Part shown: positions 2,218 through 63,045 of the stretch, piece by piece
How positions within the stretch are numbered: the stretch's first letter is position 1
Layout: every line of letters starts with the position of its first letter
NCBI GenBank assembly: GCA_043823825.1
Contig: JBDRTU010000026.1
Span: forward strand, 43-64,042
Reading direction: 5' to 3'
Length of the DNA stretch: 64,000 bases
From: Patescibacteria group bacterium
GTDB lineage: Bacteria > Patescibacteriota > Patescibacteriia > Veblenbacterales > UBA10138
Notes under the pieces: generated by a model
Told to the model about the DNA's origin: nothing
The model's database searches: none
The model's input: the letters and a program-made list of their open reading frames with translations, nothing else
Program-made: the position numbers and the translations under genes

Positions 2218-2607
2218 TTATAATTTAAAAAAGTGATTCCACCATTTTTGCCAGTTATTGGCCTGATAACCAGCCCCTCCTGATGTTTGCTCGCCTAAAA
2301 CACTGCTCTCGCCGTTTTGTGGGATAATCACAACTTGCTCTCCTGGTTTTTGTAAATTCAAACGCAAACGAGCCTCTCGTTCCCTAAATTCATTAGTTTG
2401 GAAATAAGAGATTAAATTACTTAACTCTTTATTCTTTTGCTCAAAACTATTAATTTTGGCTTGCAAACTATTTATCTCCTGCGTTAACTCAACTTTGCGC
2501 ATTTGATTTTTAACTATAGCCACTACAATAATAATCATGGCGACTATGGCTATAATTTGAAACAATCTGGACGTGATGATAGTCCAAAAACGGGCTTGGG
2601 AATGCAT
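2218..2607 (-). CDS. FtsB/DivIC-family septum formation initiator
   Basis: Single TM helix, coiled coil, and the motif REARLRLNLQKPGEQVV that resembles the FtsB ARERLG.VKPGE signature. Confidence 0.5.
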   Translation of the reverse strand: MHSQARFWTIITSRLFQIIAIVAMIIIVVAIVKNQMRKVELTQEINSLQAKINSFEQKNKELSNLISYFQTNEFREREARLRLNLQKPGEQVVIIPQNGESSVLGEQTSGGAGYQANNWQKWWNHFFKL

Positions 2608-2786
2608 AATGCTCTTAGTATAACATGTTTTTTAATAATTACATTTACCACATACCTGTGAGGGAGCAGTGGTTTACTTTAATAAATAAGGAATCTATAG
2701 TATACTTACCATGGCTATGCGAAGTAAAACACGACGAATAATTTGGATTATCTTCTCAATCATTATAGTATTAAGCCTAATACTTT

Positions 2787-4601
2787 TTACTGTAGCGCCT
2801 TAGTTCGGCTACTAGTGGGACGACTTAGTAAACTAAGATAAGCTTCGGTTGGTATTTGCACACTTCCTTGGGCACGCATTCGTTTCTTGCCCTTTTTTTG
2901 TTTTTCCAATAATTTGCGTTTACGCGTAACATCACCACCATAAAGTTTCGCTGTTACATCTTTTCTCATTGCCGATAATCGTTCAGCCGCAATTATCTTT
3001 CCGCCTAAAGCCGCCTGAATTTTCACTTCAAACATTTGACGCGGTATAATCTCCTTTAACTTAGTAACAATGCTACGCGCTTTGTGGTAAGCCTCACTGG
3101 TATATACAATAGTAGCTAATGATTCAACAATTTCTTCTGCCACTAAGATATCTAGCCGTTTAATCTGGCAGGGCCGGTATTCTAAAAAATCGTAATTAAG
3201 CGAGGCATAACCCTGACTAACGCTTTTTAAACGATCATAAAAATCAAAAAGAATTGAAGACAATGGTATTTGATAATGCAAAATTGCTCTTTCTGGCACG
3301 CCGCCAGGACCCAATAAATAATCAGTTGCTTTCCACTCAGCATGAGATTCTTGAGCTAGTGTCATTACTTTACCCAAATATTGATTAGGAGCCACAATAT
3401 CTAAGAGCATAATTGGTTCAGTTACTTGGCTGATAGTTGATTCATTTGGTAATTCTAATGCGCTTTTTATTATTTTCTCTACGCCACTTGATGTCTGTAC
3501 ACGATAAGCTACTGAGGGCGAGGTAATTACCAATTCTAATTCATATTCCCTCTCTAACCGCTCTTTAGTAATTTCCAAATGTAAAAGACCTAAAAAACCC
3601 ACACGAAAACCAAAACCTAAAGCTGGTGAATGCTCTGGTTCAAACGACAAACTAGCATCATTTAATTTTAATTTGTCTAAGCCCTCTCTTAACTCGGTAG
3701 CCTCATCGCCTTCCCTGGGATAAAACCCGGCAAAAACCATAGGTTTAACTTGTTGATAACCAGAAAGTGGCATATCTTGTTCGCTGGACACAAAGGTGTC
3801 ACCCACCCGAACCTTATTAATATTTTTTAAACCAGTTATCAGATAGCCAATTTGCCCAGCCACTAGAGTTGATTGGGGCTTTAATTGCGGCTGATAAATA
3901 CCGACCTCTAATACTTCTCCATTAATCTTTCCGCCCGGCAGCCAATAGCGGTCTCCTTTTTTTATTTCACCAGCTACTAATCTTATAGATGCAACTACTC
4001 CGCGCCATTCATCGTAACGCGAATCAAAAATTAAGGCCTGTAATTTATTACTGCTTGGTTTAGGCGCAGGAATGTCGCGCACCAAACGATTAAGCAACTC
4101 CGGCACAATTTTTCCGCTTTTTGCCGAAATTGAAAGAATCTCCTTATCTGATATTTTTAATAATGATGCTAATTCCTGCTTAGTTGCTTCAATATTAGCA
4201 TTAGGTAAATCAATTTTATTAATCACTGGAATAATCACTAAATTCTGACTTTGCGCTAAGTGCAAATTGGCGACTGTTTGAGCCTGAATACCCTGGGAAG
4301 CGTCTACTAGTAAAATAACGCCTTCAACGCAGGCCAATGAACGCGATACCTCATAGGAAAAATCTACATGACCAGGAGTATCAATTAAATTTAATAAATA
4401 ACCATTGTAACTCATAGTTACAGGCGCCAGTTTAATAGTAATACCCCGCTCCCGCTCTAACTCCATTTGGTCTAGTACTTGCTCCCTCATTGCACGCTGG
4501 GGAACAGTCTTAGTTAACTCTAATAAACGATCGGCTAAAGTTGACTTACCATGATCAATATGCGCAATAATGCAGAAGTTACGAATTTTTGATAGTTCCA
4601 T
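2787..4601 (-). CDS. lepA: Elongation factor 4 (LepA)
   Basis: G-domain motifs AHIDHGKST and DTPGHVDF, with LepA-specific C-terminal region. Confidence 0.95.
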   Translation of the reverse strand: MELSKIRNFCIIAHIDHGKSTLADRLLELTKTVPQRAMREQVLDQMELERERGITIKLAPVTMSYNGYLLNLIDTPGHVDFSYEVSRSLACVEGVILLVDASQGIQAQTVANLHLAQSQNLVIIPVINKIDLPNANIEATKQELASLLKISDKEILSISAKSGKIVPELLNRLVRDIPAPKPSSNKLQALIFDSRYDEWRGVVASIRLVAGEIKKGDRYWLPGGKINGEVLEVGIYQPQLKPQSTLVAGQIGYLITGLKNINKVRVGDTFVSSEQDMPLSGYQQVKPMVFAGFYPREGDEATELREGLDKLKLNDASLSFEPEHSPALGFGFRVGFLGLLHLEITKERLEREYELELVITSPSVAYRVQTSSGVEKIIKSALELPNESTISQVTEPIMLLDIVAPNQYLGKVMTLAQESHAEWKATDYLLGPGGVPERAILHYQIPLSSILFDFYDRLKSVSQGYASLNYDFLEYRPCQIKRLDILVAEEIVESLATIVYTSEAYHKARSIVTKLKEIIPRQMFEVKIQAALGGKIIAAERLSAMRKDVTAKLYGGDVTRKRKLLEKQKKGKKRMRAQGSVQIPTEAYLSLLSRPTSSRTKALQ

Positions 4602-14036: not shown

Positions 14037-14115
14037 AAGTTACATTATACCATTTATGGTCATTATTTCTAATCAATTAACCTTAGTCTGATTTGTAATT
14101 TTGAGTACAAAAAAA

Positions 14116-14565
14116 GCTAAGTAGACCAATAAGCCGAATTCTGTCTGACCCCGCCGTGTGGCGGGGGAAGCGATTATCTATCTGGGCCGCCTCTCACGAG
14201 GCGAGCTCTAGCTACCAACCCGTCCGTCTCGCCAATTTCTTGGCGGACGAGACCTACTTGGTATTGCACCGGGTAGAGTTTGCCTAGCCCCCGACGTCAC
14301 CGTCGGGGCTGGTGGGCTCTTACATTTTACGCTGAAGCGTTTTATTCCGCCCGTGGCGGACCCACCGTTTCACCTCTTACCTCGCTCTGCCAGATGGCTG
14401 AGCGGGCGAGTCTATTTTCTGTTGCACTTGTCCTACGACCCACTTACGCGGATCAGCGGCTGCTGTTAGCAGTTACCCTCCGCCTATGCGGCGGACACAT
14501 GGTGTTCGGACTTTCCTCCCCCATCTAATAATTAGATGAGAGCAATCGCATAAGTCTACTTAGCT
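14116..14565 (-). ncRNA. rnpB: RNase P RNA (bacterial type A)
   Basis: The reverse complement contains GGGAGGAAAGTCCGAACAC (P4 5' strand) and ACAGAATTCGGCTTAT (P4 3' strand, matching ACAGAACCCGGCTTAT), plus GGTAAGAGGTGAAACGGTGGG and GTGCAACAGAAA. The P1 stem is agctaagtagac/gtctacttagct at the two ends. This GC-rich island overlaps a spurious 82-aa plus-strand ORF in the track. Confidence 0.8.
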
Positions 14566-42110: not shown

Positions 42111-43091
42111 TTAAAACCCAATATATTGCACTTCTTCGCGTAACTCGATACCAAACTTATCGCGGACTTGTTGTTTAATATAAGAAATAAGCATTACTAC
42201 TTCTTCAGCGGTGCCACCACCCATATTCACAATGTAATTAGCATGATCGTCTGACACCTGCACCTTGCCCATCTTTTTGCCCTTCAACTCTGCCTGATCA
42301 ATTAGCCAACTAGCCGGCAATTGTCCCTTGGCTAAAAACTCATCTAATTTTGGCCGATCATCAAGCTTTTGCTTAATCTCTTTAGTTTGTTTTCTGCTCG
42401 TAACTTCAACATTAGTAAAAATACATCCTGAAGATGGATAATGATAAGGCTGACCCTTACGCTGCGCCACATATTTTTTAATCAAGGCTCGGCTAGTTTC
42501 TTTGTCGCCAGCTACCAGTTCTAAAGTTACGTCTAAAATTACATCTTTAGTTTGTTTAAAAATAGAATTGCGATAGCTAAACTGACATTGCTGACGATTC
42601 AGTTTAATAATTTTATCACGCGCTAAAGCTGTTACTTCACAAACCCAATCACCAATACAACCTTTGGTAATTTGCGGAAGTCCCGCATTGCCATAAACCG
42701 CTCCTCCCACTGTTGAAGGCACCGCCACCATCGGCTCCATTCCCCAAAGACCAGCTTCCACAGTTTTAGTTACTAAAAAACCAAGATTAACTCCTGCCTC
42801 GGCCCAAACTGTAGTGCCAGTTATTTTCCATTGCATGTTTTTTGCTATCACCACCAAACCCGAAAAACCTTGATCAGAAACTAAAACATTACAGCCATTG
42901 CCTAAAATCTGCAAAGGAAGATTTAGTTCGTGAGCTACCTGAACCGCTTTAGCTAACTCATCACTTGTTTTGGCTTCTAACAAATATTTAGCTGGACCGC
43001 CAATTTTAAAATTAGTATAAGCCGCCATCGGCTCACTAAGCTTAAGACTTGAACCTAGATTTTTTTCCAATTCATTAGAAACCTTTGCCAT
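42111..43091 (-). CDS. murB: UDP-N-acetylenolpyruvoylglucosamine reductase
   Basis: FAD-binding N-terminal motif YTNFKIGGPAKY and the MurB C-terminal domain. Start placed at the internal ATG (MAKVSN...); the track's upstream extension does not look MurB-like. Confidence 0.85.
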   Translation of the reverse strand: MAKVSNELEKNLGSSLKLSEPMAAYTNFKIGGPAKYLLEAKTSDELAKAVQVAHELNLPLQILGNGCNVLVSDQGFSGLVVIAKNMQWKITGTTVWAEAGVNLGFLVTKTVEAGLWGMEPMVAVPSTVGGAVYGNAGLPQITKGCIGDWVCEVTALARDKIIKLNRQQCQFSYRNSIFKQTKDVILDVTLELVAGDKETSRALIKKYVAQRKGQPYHYPSSGCIFTNVEVTSRKQTKEIKQKLDDRPKLDEFLAKGQLPASWLIDQAELKGKKMGKVQVSDDHANYIVNMGGGTAEEVVMLISYIKQQVRDKFGIELREEVQYIGF

Positions 43092-43299
43092 ATAGTTATT
43101 TAAGACTATTTTTAGACTACGGTAAACGTGTAGAACAAGCAAACGCCATAGATTAATGTTTTATGCCTATTTTGGCCAGAAACTGTAACTTTCAGGTATT
43201 TTTCTTAGCTAAAATTAGCCAAAAAATAACTTTTTTTGTTCCATAATGCTTGACAAAATTAACCCCTTAACCTATACTGAAATGTTAAATTGAATAATT

Positions 43300-43870
43300 T
43301 AAAAATTAAAAAGAGCCCCCGCGGTGCTTGCGGGTAAAGTAAACATAAGGTGTTTACCCAGGTATCAGATTTTTCCTGACAAGCACAACCGATTGCAGTC
43401 GAATCCCGCAAGAGATACAAATAAGGTAGTCACTCTGGATTAGGAGTGGCTGACTATCGCAGTAGAATAAGCGGTAAAACAAGTATCAACGGGACAAGTA
43501 AGCAGAAACGGATGTTATGGACGGATGACTGATATCTAGGTAAACACCTTTTTAAATAAAAATGTGTCATTAACTCTCCTACATCCCGATTAAAATCGGG
43601 ACTACGGAAGGCGCGACGAGCTACTAAGCAAATTATCTAGTAATCAGATACAACTTAATCTAAATAAAAACTGTAAAGTTGACAAAATTTCTTTCCCACC
43701 AACATGGAGGAGAGAGTTAGTCCGCCGACTAGGCGGATAAAGATGGTGGACTTGGTAAGTTTGGTGCGAACTAAACTAACCATGGGAAACCATTTCACCC
43801 TGGATACGTCTCCCTTCGGGAGATATAAATCCAAGGTACTTCCTCCAGATTAGTGTGAAAGAATAAATAT
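43300..43870. other. Long GC-enriched intergenic segment with multiple stable hairpins, a candidate unannotated structured RNA
   Basis: About 570 nt with no convincing ORF and GC content well above the background. Contains a UUCG-tetraloop hairpin (tctccc-ttcg-gggaga), tccgcc-gacta-ggcgga, cccgat-taaaa-atcggg, and long-range complementarity cttgcggg ... cccgcaag. Confidence 0.3.
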
Positions 43871-43883
43871 AAGGAGTAAAAAG

Positions 43884-44339
43884 ATGAAAGGTTTAGTTGT
43901 TATATTGCTAGCACTAGTGGGGCTAAGCTGCTCCACATTTGATATGTTACCGAAAATCTTGGTGACATACACAATGGATAATCGCGACACTGCTTATGCA
44001 GATTTCGCAATTGAGTCTGTTGAAGCAACACGCACCTACACGGTTTATCCTGGATACCCTGTCCAGGATCAACAGGAGTTAGTTAGTAATGTCAGTAATT
44101 ATAATTACCGTCACAGCGACCGCGTTCAGCTAAATATACGTGTTCGCACGCATGATTTGCGTACTTTTTCTACGCAAGCATGGTTCTATCATCTAAAAGT
44201 AAATGACATTGTTTTCGATGGTAGGAGAATTATTGTGAGGGCGCCTCGCTGGTACAAAGAAGTGGCCCAATACGATACGCTCGCCATATCTTATGGCGAC
44301 TTAATAAAAACTCCCCCTAACAACAAGGGGGATTACTGA
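43884..44339 (+). CDS. Hypothetical lipoprotein
   Basis: Lipoprotein signal LALVGLSC. The gene is compositionally GC-richer than its neighbours. Confidence 0.5.
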   Translation: MKGLVVILLALVGLSCSTFDMLPKILVTYTMDNRDTAYADFAIESVEATRTYTVYPGYPVQDQQELVSNVSNYNYRHSDRVQLNIRVRTHDLRTFSTQAWFYHLKVNDIVFDGRRIIVRAPRWYKEVAQYDTLAISYGDLIKTPPNNKGDY

Positions 44340-44567
44340 CTTTCAAAAAATAAGGAGTAATTATGCCCTTCTATTGAATACACACAGTGTAGGAGGTCAC
44401 CTGCAAGCCCTCCTAAAGCAAGCGGGTAGCGCCTTGGCAACCGGCGTTATAATAAAATTTGGGCTGGGAGAGACTATCAACACTCTCCCTAATTTTTTTA
44501 AGCTCGCAATCAGTTTGTGATTTTAAAAAAGTTTAACAATCTCTCCAAAATAAATAGGAAAAATAAA

Positions 44568-44708
44568 ATGTTATTAAATATAATTGACCAAAGCCGTTTG
44601 AGTATGGGAAAACAAATTCTTATACTGCTGATTATTGCACTACTGGCATTAGTAATTGTGTGGTTGACTGGTGCGGACTATATAATACCAGATTCTCCAC
44701 GACCGTAA
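44568..44708 (+). CDS. Hypothetical small single-TM protein
   Basis: 47 aa from the internal ATG, which has an AGGAAA RBS-like sequence upstream. One TM helix and a terminator immediately 3'. Confidence 0.35.
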   Translation: MLLNIIDQSRLSMGKQILILLIIALLALVIVWLTGADYIIPDSPRP

Positions 44709-44712
44709 AAAG

Positions 44713-44751
44713 CAGCCGATCACGAGCAATCATTGATCGGCTTTTTCTTTT
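44713..44751 (+). terminator. Rho-independent terminator
   Basis: Stem agccgatca ... tgatcggct followed by TTTTTCTTTTT. Confidence 0.65.
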
Positions 44752-44828
44752 TAAATAACGCACTTTGCGCACTACTTTCTCCAATCCCACAGAATATTCT
44801 GGACACAGTATTCCACTAGAAATCAAGA

Positions 44829-44936: not shown

Positions 44937-46340
44937 TTAATTATTATCCTGCACTAAACCTAATCTGTTAATCAACTCCTCTCCTACTTTCCAAACATCG
45001 CCAGCGCCCATAGTGATCACTAAGTCGCTGCGGCCTAAGTTTGACGATAGATAATCAGTTGCTTCTTTAATGGTTGGTTTATGGATTACATTTGAGTGGT
45101 GCTTTTTAATCTCCTCCACTAATTTGATAGAGTTTATTTCACCTTTGGTTTCTCGTGCTGAACTGTAAATATCTAGCACTACGACCTCGTCCGCTTCAGT
45201 AAAGCTGATGCCAAAATCGTCTAATAATGCTTTAGTGCGTGAAAAAGTATGGGGATGAAACACTACTCTGATATTTTTATAAGGGTAAAAATTACGAGCT
45301 GCTTTTAAAGTAGCGATAATCTCAGCTGGATGGTGCGCATAATCATCAATGATCAAGGCATTATTAGTTAAACGACCTTTTAATTCAAACCTGCGAGCAG
45401 TTCCCTCAAAATCAGCTAATGCCTTGCGAACTACTTCTAACTCTACTCCCAAGCAGCGACTAGTAGCTAACACTGCCAAGGCATTAGCCACATTATGGCT
45501 ACCTACCAACTTTAACCAAAAATCACCTAAAAATTCTCCTCCCGCGCTAGCGGAAAAATGCCAACGCCCCTCATCCAACCACATTCGTTCTAAACGCCAA
45601 TAACCTTGGGTTAGGCCATAGCTAATAATCTGTTCAGACGACAACCCGGCGGCGATTATTGCTTTACGTACTTGTTCACTGTCATAATTTGCCACAACAA
45701 GACCATCAGCCGGTATTTTTTTAAGAAACTCCACAAAGGTTTGGTAATAACTCTCAGCTGTCGCAAAAAAATCAGGATGATCCCAATCAATGCTTGTTAA
45801 AACAACTGCCCAAGGATTAAAGTAAGAAAATTTATTTTGATATTCATCTGCTTCAAAAACCAACAATTCGCCTGCTCCCACTAAAGCATTACCATTAAAC
45901 TGGGGCACGGCTGACCCTACAACAGCGCTCGGTGACAAACCAGCAGTTTGTAACACATAAGCCAGCATAGCGGTAATAGTGGTTTTGCCATGGCTACCAG
46001 CTATGGCAATGGCTTTAAACTCTTTAATTAATTCGCCTAATGCTTCGGCATAGGTTATTAAGGTTATACCCTTTTCTTTTGCTGATTTAATTTCAGGATT
46101 ATCTAAACTATAGGCTGTTGAATAAATTACCAAATCAATATCGTTCCTTAGTTGACTGGCTTTAAAACCTTCATAATATTCCAGACCGGCCTGCTTTAAA
46201 ACTTGATCAGTAAAAAACTTTTCTGAAGTATCAGAGCCGGAAATCTGCTTGCCTTGCTGTTTTAAAATCTGGGCCAAAGCAGTCATCCCCACTCCTTTGA
46301 TACCAATAAAATATACTTTCTTAGCTTGTGCTAAATTCAT
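44937..46340 (-). CDS. murC: UDP-N-acetylmuramate--L-alanine ligase
   Basis: N-terminal motif FIGIKGVGMTALAQIL and the Mur ligase central P-loop GSHGKTT. Confidence 0.95.
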   Translation of the reverse strand: MNLAQAKKVYFIGIKGVGMTALAQILKQQGKQISGSDTSEKFFTDQVLKQAGLEYYEGFKASQLRNDIDLVIYSTAYSLDNPEIKSAKEKGITLITYAEALGELIKEFKAIAIAGSHGKTTITAMLAYVLQTAGLSPSAVVGSAVPQFNGNALVGAGELLVFEADEYQNKFSYFNPWAVVLTSIDWDHPDFFATAESYYQTFVEFLKKIPADGLVVANYDSEQVRKAIIAAGLSSEQIISYGLTQGYWRLERMWLDEGRWHFSASAGGEFLGDFWLKLVGSHNVANALAVLATSRCLGVELEVVRKALADFEGTARRFELKGRLTNNALIIDDYAHHPAEIIATLKAARNFYPYKNIRVVFHPHTFSRTKALLDDFGISFTEADEVVVLDIYSSARETKGEINSIKLVEEIKKHHSNVIHKPTIKEATDYLSSNLGRSDLVITMGAGDVWKVGEELINRLGLVQDNN

Positions 46341-62064: not shown

Positions 62065-62297
62065 ATTTTTTGTTCTTAATAAATTAGTTAATTTTTTTAT
62101 ACTAACTTACTTATAGTCTACCACCCAGATACTTTTTGCAAAACTATCTCATTCAACTAATCAACGCTAACCTCAAAAACTTATGCGATTTTCTCTTTTT
62201 CCTGATATTCTTTTGATAATTCTTGATTATTATATTGTTCAGGATTTTCAAGCATAATATTAAAATTAAATTAGTAAAATTTAAATATCATCATTCT

Positions 62298-62315
62298 CTC
62301 ATTCGCTCGAATGAG
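62298..62315. repeat. Palindrome ctcattcg-ct-cgaatgag immediately downstream of the arsR-like gene
   Basis: Perfect 8-bp arms. The reverse-complement variant occurs at 62617-62632, and related palindromes at 25874 and 63684. Confidence 0.6.
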
Positions 62316-62322
62316 GTCTAAA

Positions 62323-62589
62323 TCAAATATAACTGATAACAGATTTAGATACTCGCGACAGCTCCGAAGATAAGGAATAAAATACTAGTTTACTTTTTTG
62401 CTCTGATTCTAAAATATCAGCACCTTTTAAGACAGTAAGATGTTTAGAGGTGGCTTTAAATGATAGTTTGATGGCGTCAGCTATATCACCTACTGGTGCT
62501 GGCTGATGAGATTTTAGATATTTGATAATAGCCAGACGGCGTTTATTAGCTAAAGCTTTTAGATTTCTTTCTAACTCCTTCATAAACAT
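62323..62589 (-). CDS. ArsR/SmtB-family transcriptional regulator
   Basis: 88 aa with a wHTH motif: LKALANKRRLAIIKYL ... VGDIADAIKLSFKATSKHLTVLKGADIL. Confidence 0.75.
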   Translation of the reverse strand: MFMKELERNLKALANKRRLAIIKYLKSHQPAPVGDIADAIKLSFKATSKHLTVLKGADILESEQKSKLVFYSLSSELSRVSKSVISYI

Positions 62590-62616
62590 ATTATAGCACC
62601 ATTATTATCATTCAAA

Positions 62617-62632
62617 CATTCGAGCGAATGAG
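62617..62632. promoter_or_regulatory. Palindromic candidate operator cattcg-ag-cgaatg upstream of the arsR-like gene
   Basis: Located 28 nt upstream of the arsR start codon. It is an inverted copy of the palindrome at 62298-62315. Confidence 0.4.
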
Positions 62633-62759
62633 GGCAAGATAAGGGGGAGGTGGGAGTATGGAGTATGATGGGGAAAGATGATCTGCTGCAAAGATGATTT
62701 TTTTGTTTAGGCAGCCAAAATTACTGAATTTATTAAGTAATAAATTCATGAATTAATTT

Positions 62760-62798
62760 ATGCCTGCCCGCCTTGGGCGGGAATTAATTACTGAATTT
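62760..62798. repeat. 39-nt direct repeat, copy A
   Basis: atgcctgcccgccttgggcgggaattaattactgaattt. The last 19 nt are identical to copy B at 63733-63771. It overlaps the 3' end of a minus-strand ORF. Confidence 0.55.
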
Positions 62799-62809
62799 CC
62801 TTGATAATT

Positions 62810-63045
62810 TCATTTTAGCGCAAAACCACCCAGCAACACTAGGTAGCTGGTGGAAATGAAGCTCCATAGCCTTATGGCCATGGTATCCTTCATTTCTTCG
62901 GCGGAATCCGCCGTAGCACCCTCCTTTACTTTTCGAGCTACGGAGGATCCACCCCGCATTCATCCACGGGCTTACGTCCGTGGTCTTCATGCGAAGGCGG
63001 ATAAAAAAGACCCGCCAGAGGTCCTTGGGACATAGCGGGTTAGGT
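62810..63045. other. GC-rich, hairpin-dense segment that is a candidate structured RNA. The overlapping short ORFs on both strands are probably artefacts.
   Basis: Consecutive stems: ccagc/gctgg, gaaatgaag/cttcatttc (9 bp), cggcgg-att-ccgccg and ccacgg-N8-ccgtgg. The two overlapping ORFs (68 and 61 aa) have RNA-like odd composition. Confidence 0.3.

Follow-up and report, generated by a model that had tools for sequence, protein, structure and literature searches.

What occupies the long gap between murB and murC in a Patescibacteria group bacterium, and does it act as an RNA? The 64,000-nucleotide (nt) stretch of DNA analysed here, the window, comes from contig JBDRTU010000026.1 (assembly GCA_043823825.1), and positions are counted from its first letter. 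Its − strand carries a division and cell-wall cluster, mraY-murD-ftsW-murG-murC (murC ending at 44937) followed by murB (42111–43091), and a + strand unit sits between murC and murB. Judged by sequence comparison, the murB-murC gap is a previously undescribed structured RNA locus specific to one clade of Patescibacteria. We favour, with a probability of roughly one half, a reading in which stable RNA domains of this locus act in their own right and the downstream envelope genes are read-through passengers, possibly partners.

Conservation and covariation of the murB-murC gap

The original prediction described the longest non-coding stretch in the window, densely structured and beside murB, and this description stood. 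Positions 43143–43883 (741 nt) hold no open reading frame (ORF) of at least 60 amino acids (aa), the longest such gap in the window; the ORFs inside are all ≤59 aa, and none has a Pfam match reaching threshold. The predicted fold of 43290–43885 has an energy of −182.8 kcal/mol, compared with −133.5 ± 6.6 kcal/mol in dinucleotide shuffles (z = −7.4). The pairings picked out by eye are also present, namely the hairpins tccgcc-gacta-ggcgga (43720–43738) and cccgat-taaaa-atcggg (43584–43601), a UUCG stem (43802–43832), and the complementarity of cttgcggg (43327–43334) to cccgcaag (43405–43412). The original estimate of about 720 nt up to the next gene is correct, but the structure does not end there, as the structured part resumes past a lipoprotein gene and runs to about 44567.

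Homologous loci were gathered via the lipoprotein homologue P0002, nine MurB relatives and one metagenome scan with a MurB alignment, which yielded at least five loci of the clade, two of them too short. A scan of genome contigs with MurB returned only distant MurB proteins (31–34% identity, other phyla) and no clade relatives. The same arrangement is found in at least 13 further lineages (L012, L016, L017, L019, L020, L022, L023, L024, L026, L028, L031, L106 and L107), some of them named Veblenbacteria or Kerfeldbacteria, with MurB proteins 54–68% identical to that of the window. The shared order is murB, RNA, small envelope genes and murC, and the non-coding alignment consists of blocks of ~70–95% identity interrupted by variable segments. 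In L025, whose MurB is 50% identical, the murC-murB gap is just 147 nt and lacks such an RNA.

Two separable RNA domains, A and B, make up the conserved part (Table 1). In domain B an unpaired UUGACAA (43679–43685; UUGACAA/UUAACAA across lineages) stands 5' of the basal helix P1, in which 43688–43713 pair with 43839–43863 (~25 pairs here, 23–25 bp overall). Inside this helix GGAGGAG (43706–43712) and CUUCCUCC (43839–43846) form an invariant pair, and the inner helix, GGAGGRG/CYUCCUCC, never covaries. The same P3/P4 architecture came out of 13 separate minimum-energy folds of different sequences. In the model-based alignment the 41 pairs of domain B are 90.2% paired and 25 of them show compensatory change, a result as good in 0 of 500 shuffles; the covariation score of 0.49 was attained by none of 500 shuffles, which gave 0.23, and sliding the partners by 1–3 columns brought it down to 0.16 or less. 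L106 and L107, held out of the building of covariance model R1, score 102 bits.

Domain A opens with hairpin P1, whose stem takes the forms CCCGC/GCGGG, CCCA/UGGG, CUUG/CAAG, CCUG/CAGG and GGG/CCC across lineages, while its loop is GUGCUU followed by G or A in 11 of 12. This loop is complementary to CAAGCAC at 43380–43386, and the inner complement, read directly from the sequences, is CAAGCAC in 6/12 lineages and CAGGCAC in 3/12. A pseudoknot between the two is suggested by their co-conservation (9/12 lineages) and one change from U-A to U-G. The core, to which covariance model R2 is confined, is closed by helix P2, in which 43349–43368 pair with 43529–43548 (20 bp here, 20–22 bp overall). Across 12 sequences P2 is 97.9% paired, with compensatory change at 8 of its 20 pairs and one invariant G-U; 0 of 500 shuffles reach these values. 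The branched interior of P2 contains a T-loop-like hairpin (43457–43474, loop AGUAGAAUAA) with a covarying 3–4-bp stem and the loop AGUYGAAUAR across lineages, and the window, L012 and L017 share a ~100-nt expansion with repeated copies of this motif. Directly after the last paired base of P2 (43548) stands a run of five U (43549–43553), and U4–6 follows in 12/12 lineages. The 3' end of domain A thus has the GC-containing stem and immediate U run of a terminator, but not the short loop of 3–10 nt, as the helix encloses 160 nt here and 60–160 nt in relatives. An antiterminator hairpin in the 5' helix strand of domain A was considered and rejected, being inconsistent across lineages. The variable spacer between the domains measures 117 nt in the window and ~460 nt in L012; in L026 and L031 it includes a small ORF.

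Since G-U pairs are conserved in both domains and both covariance models score higher on the + strand (Table 1), the RNA can be assigned to that strand. These pairs also bear on the proposition that there is no RNA gene at all and that the gap is a decayed pseudogene, a miniature inverted-repeat transposable element (MITE) or other mobile-element remnant with inverted repeats, or an acquired island. Each domain is indeed bounded by a 20–25-bp inverted repeat in the DNA, and the original prediction had reported raised GC. However, the pairs change in a compensatory manner, and among them are conserved G-U pairs, mismatched at the DNA level; the element is single-copy, with none of the multiple dispersed copies of a MITE in the window or the loci; and it keeps the same position in 14 lineages. 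ORFs of any frame lack a protein-family match, and matches to viral-contig patterns are at chance level (≤16 bits). The compositional argument also fell away. GC is 0.399 in the RNA region and 0.401 over 43150–44510 (73rd percentile among 600-nt windows of the stretch), as against 0.400 in murB, 0.397 in murC and 0.381 in the whole window; the lipoprotein gene reaches 0.425, and the sole neighbour poorer in GC than the RNA region is the AT-rich promoter spacer adjoining murB (0.30). Synteny through a deep clade together with this ordinary composition excludes recent horizontal acquisition, which the original prediction had offered as one possibility. The segment is conserved, covaries and has no protein homology, the opposite on all three points of the outcome by which that prediction was to be refuted. 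We therefore give almost no weight to an explanation without an RNA gene.

Table 1 Positions of features in the + strand unit between murB and murC.
Feature	Position	Strand	Details
Sigma-70-type promoter	43250–43278	+	TTGACA, 17 nt, TATACT; 11/12 consensus positions; divergent from murB
Domain A	43318–43553	+	Hairpin P1, 20-bp closing helix P2, then U5
Domain A, hairpin P1	43318–43334	+	Stem CCCGC/GCGGG, loop GUGCUU(G); stem covaries between lineages
Domain A, core	43346–43553	+	Covariance model R2: 76.4 bits on +, 45.5 bits on −
Variable spacer between A and B	43554–43670	+	Conserved hairpin 43584–43601, UCCCGAUUAAAAUCGGGA
Domain B	43671–43868	+	Three- or four-way junction; covariance model R1: 122.8 bits on +, 38.4 bits on −
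Domain B, optional hairpin P2	43720–43738	+	GUCCGCC/GGCGGAU stem; swapped for CUCCCCGG/CCGGGGAG in L012
Domain B, long stem P3	43742–43796	+	Apical UGGU-GCGA-ACU hairpin at 43758–43777 (UGGU-N4-ACU across lineages)
Domain B, hairpin P4	43802–43832	+	UUCG-type loop, A-rich 3' bulge
151-aa lipoprotein gene	43884–44339	+	Shine-Dalgarno sequence AAGGAG at 43871–43876
Third structured non-coding stretch	44340–44567	+	Fold z = −3.45
46-aa single-pass membrane ORF	44568–44708	+	C-terminus PDSPRP; homologous 46-aa PDSPRP-ending ORF in L016

Promoter and comparison with known RNA families

A promoter close to the sigma-70 consensus precedes domain A, and the start of transcription is predicted at about 43284–43286. 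The pattern TTGACA-17 nt-TA(T/G)RnT recurs in 12/12 lineages examined, as well as in L106 and L107, and UGUUA comes next. Immediately 5' of the −35 box lies GTTCCAYAAYCC (43238–43249, + strand), which is kept in ~9/14 lineages; the divergent murB promoter region may share it as an operator or UP element. Two further promoters were considered and dismissed: an internal one at the conserved TTGACAA before domain B, where the spacer is just 15 nt and the −10 region unconserved, and an antisense one from the reverse complement of the same motif, where the −10 is again unconserved. As a separate observation, the unpaired UUGACAA of domain B and UUUAACAA (44532–44539, + strand) recur right after structured modules and right before the next element, and this motif is complementary to the conserved 5' end of the transcript, UGUUAA.

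No known RNA family accounts for these domains. Rfam 15 at gathering score gave no match over the region, either in the window or in the 11 loci homologous to it, and at E ≤ 10 with lax filters (43050–44600 and one homologue, L020) it gave chance matches at most. Models of OLE, ROOL, GOLLD, HEARO and raiA do not match 43050–44600 at E ≤ 10, nor the 11 loci at gathering score; SRP RNA, RNase P RNA and group I intron models likewise lack a match in the region in the Rfam scans of the window and the 11 loci. No 6S model matches in the window, and the single 17.9-bit match to a Bacteroidales-1 model (E = 2.5), in L020 only, is at chance level. ARAGORN found only a tRNA-Thr gene in the window and no tmRNA or tRNA in the region, and Rfam returned no tmRNA match. 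That tRNA-Thr (CGU; 970–1044, + strand) is the sole tRNA of the window. Pattern scans of viral contigs for domains A and B gave chance matches of at most 16 bits, and a full-text search of the literature found no description of a murB-murC RNA element. The large structured RNA proposed by the original prediction is thus upheld, with homologues in the same place, strong covariation, a conserved promoter and no Rfam match, while tmRNA, SRP RNA, 6S RNA and the known large RNAs were all tested and none matched.

A divergent member of a known family (6S, SRP, tmRNA, RNase P, OLE, ROOL, GOLLD, HEARO, raiA or group I intron) might nevertheless have been missed by Rfam in so deep-branching a phylum. 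The RNAs of Patescibacteria are often divergent, and one report describes group I introns in tRNA genes of this group that escaped standard tools (PMC13011429). Domain A, moreover, has a long closing stem like that of 6S RNA. The resemblance to 6S RNA at the Escherichia coli ssrS-ygfA locus extends to a strong promoter, a transcript that runs into a coding gene and one copy per genome, but 6S models do not match, and the interior of domain A is branched with a probable pseudoknot and not a rod with a central bubble. The absence of Rfam matches even at E ≤ 10 and of a tmRNA in ARAGORN also counts against this explanation, as does the fact that two separable junction domains fit none of the families listed. 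Since RNase P RNA was found at 198 bits in the same scan, divergence by itself does not hide the RNAs of this phylum from Rfam models; that gene, of class A, lies at 14114–14562 on the − strand and spans 449 nt over a 367-position model, indicating insertions. A tRNA gene interrupted by a group I intron was rejected in view of the missing T-arm, acceptor stem and intron-model match. Altogether, an overlooked known family is highly improbable. Elsewhere in the window, 62065–63044 (980 nt) is the longest gap at a cut-off of 100 aa for ORFs, and it too has no Rfam match at gathering score.

Modular domains and changing downstream genes

Models R1 and R2 find one copy per locus, with no second copy in the 64-kb window nor in ~30 unrelated murB loci. 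The two domains are nonetheless separable: domain A occurs without B in L023, where a 40-aa membrane ORF follows, and L022 and L107 have B alone. The small ORF between A and B in L026 and L031 has a ribosome-binding site. In L024 and L106 a canonical hairpin-U terminator comes after the two domains, and no ORF preceded by a ribosome-binding site lies in the gap. Between these two loci 40% of the aligned positions in B are different, with seven compensatory and three wobble-compatible changes in B and two compensatory changes in the closing helix of A, which implies that selection keeps the folds where no gene follows. Further ORF-less stretches between murB and murC, often GC-rich and rich in hairpins, were seen at L012 5210–5568, L022 4050–5134, L024 4882–5200, L106 4890–5190 and L028 ~2600–3000; none of them has an Rfam match, and that of L012 is a 360-nt insertion separating domains A and B.

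The genes after domain B change between lineages. The lipoprotein gene named in the original prediction was borne out in the window, the 151-aa ORF having a signal peptide and a lipobox (LVGLS, then C) that were read from the sequence. The cysteine that ends this lipobox, MKGLVVILLALVGLS followed by C, is shared without exception when the protein is aligned with P0002 and P0125, and homologues carry AGC, VGC or WGC lipoboxes. NCBI lists its product as a hypothetical protein. The ORF has no Pfam match and drew two matches among 5.8 billion clusters and four among 1.84 billion representatives; by these searches it is an orphan, clade-restricted family. Its AlphaFold2 model (mean confidence score, pLDDT, 72) is all-beta with ten strands, a generic beta-sandwich without a PDB match at E ≤ 0.001. 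Lipoproteins with the motif P-x-(I/V)-x-VTY follow domain B in the window, L012, L016, L017 and L019; in L020, L028 and L031 a ~110-aa multi-pass protein and then a second lipoprotein family take this place, and elsewhere other small membrane proteins do, for example of 68 aa or 124 aa.

Past the lipoprotein gene lies the third structured stretch, comprising a hairpin AGGAGG/CCCUCCU (44390–44415), a terminator-like GGGAGAG...CUCUCCC with a U run (44466–44499), and a hairpin at 44500–44531 that is followed by UUUAACAA. The 87-nt leader of the 46-aa ORF (44484–44570) is 91% identical to L017 4372–4458, where the MurB pair is 67% identical, and is the best-conserved sequence in the whole unit; a similar element lies 5' of a 33-aa membrane ORF in L107. 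Directly past the lipoprotein stop (44352–44377, + strand) stands a mini-ORF of four codons, MPFY-stop, whose ribosome-binding site is strong (AAGGAG, 7 nt, ATG); it may be a remnant or encode a leader peptide. A hairpin and U run 3' of the 46-aa ORF (44714–44752) are likely to be the end of the unit, facing murC.

The small hydrophobic ORFs raise the question of a locus similar to type I toxin-antitoxin systems, in which the folded mRNA would keep a small hydrophobic peptide (the 46-aa ORF; 33–57 aa elsewhere) untranslated by means of hairpins that cover its Shine-Dalgarno (SD) sequence. Single-pass hydrophobic ORFs do recur in the unit, as do hairpins of GGAGG/CCUCC type (43706/43839, 44390–44415 and 44466–44490), and the promoter is strong. 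However, no antisense promoter or RNA is conserved, and the promoter- and terminator-like matches on the − strand of the window are not conserved in relatives. The unit is single-copy and syntenic through a deep clade, it also contains lipoproteins of 117–172 aa and multi-pass proteins of ~110 aa, and domains A and B are retained even where there is no ORF. We consider a toxin-antitoxin locus very improbable.

Regulatory leader or RNA acting in its own right

The closest contender is a set of cis-regulatory leaders, either orphan riboswitches or protein-binding attenuators. Domain A would be a sensor whose terminator gates read-through, and domain B a translational or stability element for the next envelope gene, with its CUCCUCC sequestering the SD once the basal helix opens. 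Several features point this way: in most lineages same-strand ORFs come directly after A and B, an invariant U run follows the A helix immediately, and at 9 of 11 loci the minimum-energy fold, once the 5' strand of B is removed, joins the CUCC of B to the SD downstream of it. GGAGG/CCUCC never covaries though neighbouring pairs do, which suggests that the sequence itself matters, and both the T-loop-like hairpin and the putative pseudoknot resemble features of aptamers. Like tandem riboswitch or attenuator leaders, the locus combines covarying folds 5' of same-strand genes with a helix and U run at the 3' edge of A and an SD-like/anti-SD-like pair in B.

The same comparison also separates the two. 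Domains A and B have the conserved, covarying, aptamer-like fold of riboswitches, but not functionally related downstream genes at several loci: there is one copy, with varied or absent genes, at a single fixed locus and without a regulon, and the gene context suggests no ligand. The genes supposedly regulated differ by lineage while the RNA stays constant, and in the lineages that lack a following ORF both domains survive, their pairs changing in a compensatory way. The closing helices measure 20–25 bp, as against 4–8 bp in such leaders. In particular, the 23–25-bp basal helix of B is far more stable than the 4–6-bp SD alternative (−3 to −15 kcal/mol), so that a switch between them is hard to picture, and a terminator 'loop' of 60–160 nt in A is atypical. 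We regard the leader explanation as possible, though clearly short of probable. A non-coding RNA gene is favoured over a regulon-type riboswitch because there is one copy at a fixed locus, a strong conserved promoter, constant domains beside variable ORFs, and folds that are kept without an ORF.

Several points weigh against RNA domains acting in their own right: (i) The covariation counts rest on 12–13 distinct sequences, and the promoter, transcript start and transcript ends are predictions. (ii) Every homologue was reached through MurB, so the fixed site beside murB is partly an effect of ascertainment. (iii) L024 and L106 are each other's relatives, and the absence of an ORF in them therefore amounts to a single loss event. 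(iv) In 11 of 13 lineages a same-strand ribosome-binding site and start codon stand 44–66 nt past B, and in three a small ORF comes directly after A; ORFs placed right after A and B give the appearance expected of a cis-acting leader.

The length of the closing helices, far greater than junction closure needs, admits another explanation. RNase III needs a duplex of ~20 bp. Both closing helices are near-perfect and span about two helical turns or more, a length that is kept in all lineages and exceeds that of riboswitch P1 helices, and in L026 and L031 the modules lie between cistrons. An RNase III-type enzyme might cleave these helices, excising the cores of A and B as stable small RNAs and splitting the polycistronic transcript, a sub-mechanism compatible with either a non-coding RNA gene or a leader. 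Long near-perfect duplexes similarly flank folded RNA or lie between cistrons in the RNase III stems of rRNA operons and phage T7 early mRNA. The RNAs enclosed here, however, are not rRNA or tRNA, and the helix sequences themselves are conserved, beyond what duplex length would demand. As the idea is drawn purely from helix length, with no cleavage-site motif to support it, we think such processing unlikely.

Returning to the favoured reading, we propose that the near-consensus promoter, divergent from murB, would drive a + strand transcript in which domains A and B are the functional products, stable RNAs that bind a protein or ligand. The long terminal helices may protect or define the ends of A and B, and the helix of A with its U run might terminate transcription leakily. 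Read-through from the same strong promoter would express the small lipoprotein and membrane-protein genes, as passengers that vary between lineages. By analogy with OapA for OLE RNA, the downstream proteins are possibly partners of the RNA. Transcription itself, the transcript ends, any trans-acting role and any protein partner are what we infer.

The OLE RNA/OapA system of Bacillota (its OLE side taken from general knowledge) resembles the locus in being a large (~600 nt), multi-domain, single-copy structured RNA of one clade, with the same direction as, and immediately upstream of, small membrane-protein genes of unknown function. Unlike it, the murB RNA does not match the Rfam OLE model, belongs to a different phylum, consists of two separable domains able to occur alone, and has downstream proteins that vary by lineage and are absent in two. 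It is conceivable, though doubtful, that A and B, with the third stretch, form a new modular 'ornate' RNA class of the clade within the division and cell-wall cluster. Such an RNA machine or scaffold might be a membrane ribonucleoprotein with the small lipoproteins or membrane proteins, in the manner of OLE, or a homo-oligomeric assembly like those of ROOL and GOLLD.

Patescibacteria genomes are very compact. A conserved non-coding transcript of at least 600 nt with its own near-consensus promoter is therefore costly in them, and presumably important. Few large structured bacterial RNAs of unknown function are known (OLE, ROOL, GOLLD, HEARO and raiA), and they have repeatedly revealed unexpected biology, such as RNA-only cages; to our knowledge, no large RNA of this type has been known from this phylum. 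With two defined domains of 110–200 nt, clear helices, invariant loops and natural variants that contain only A or only B, the locus is amenable to probing, cryo-electron microscopy and binding screens, and its place within the peptidoglycan and division cluster hints at where a phenotype may be sought. Short natural forms are domain A of L023 or L020 (~105–135 nt) and domain B of L020 or L107 (~170 nt). If the ornate-RNA reading were true, it would link an RNA to envelope biology in ultra-small, host-dependent bacteria.

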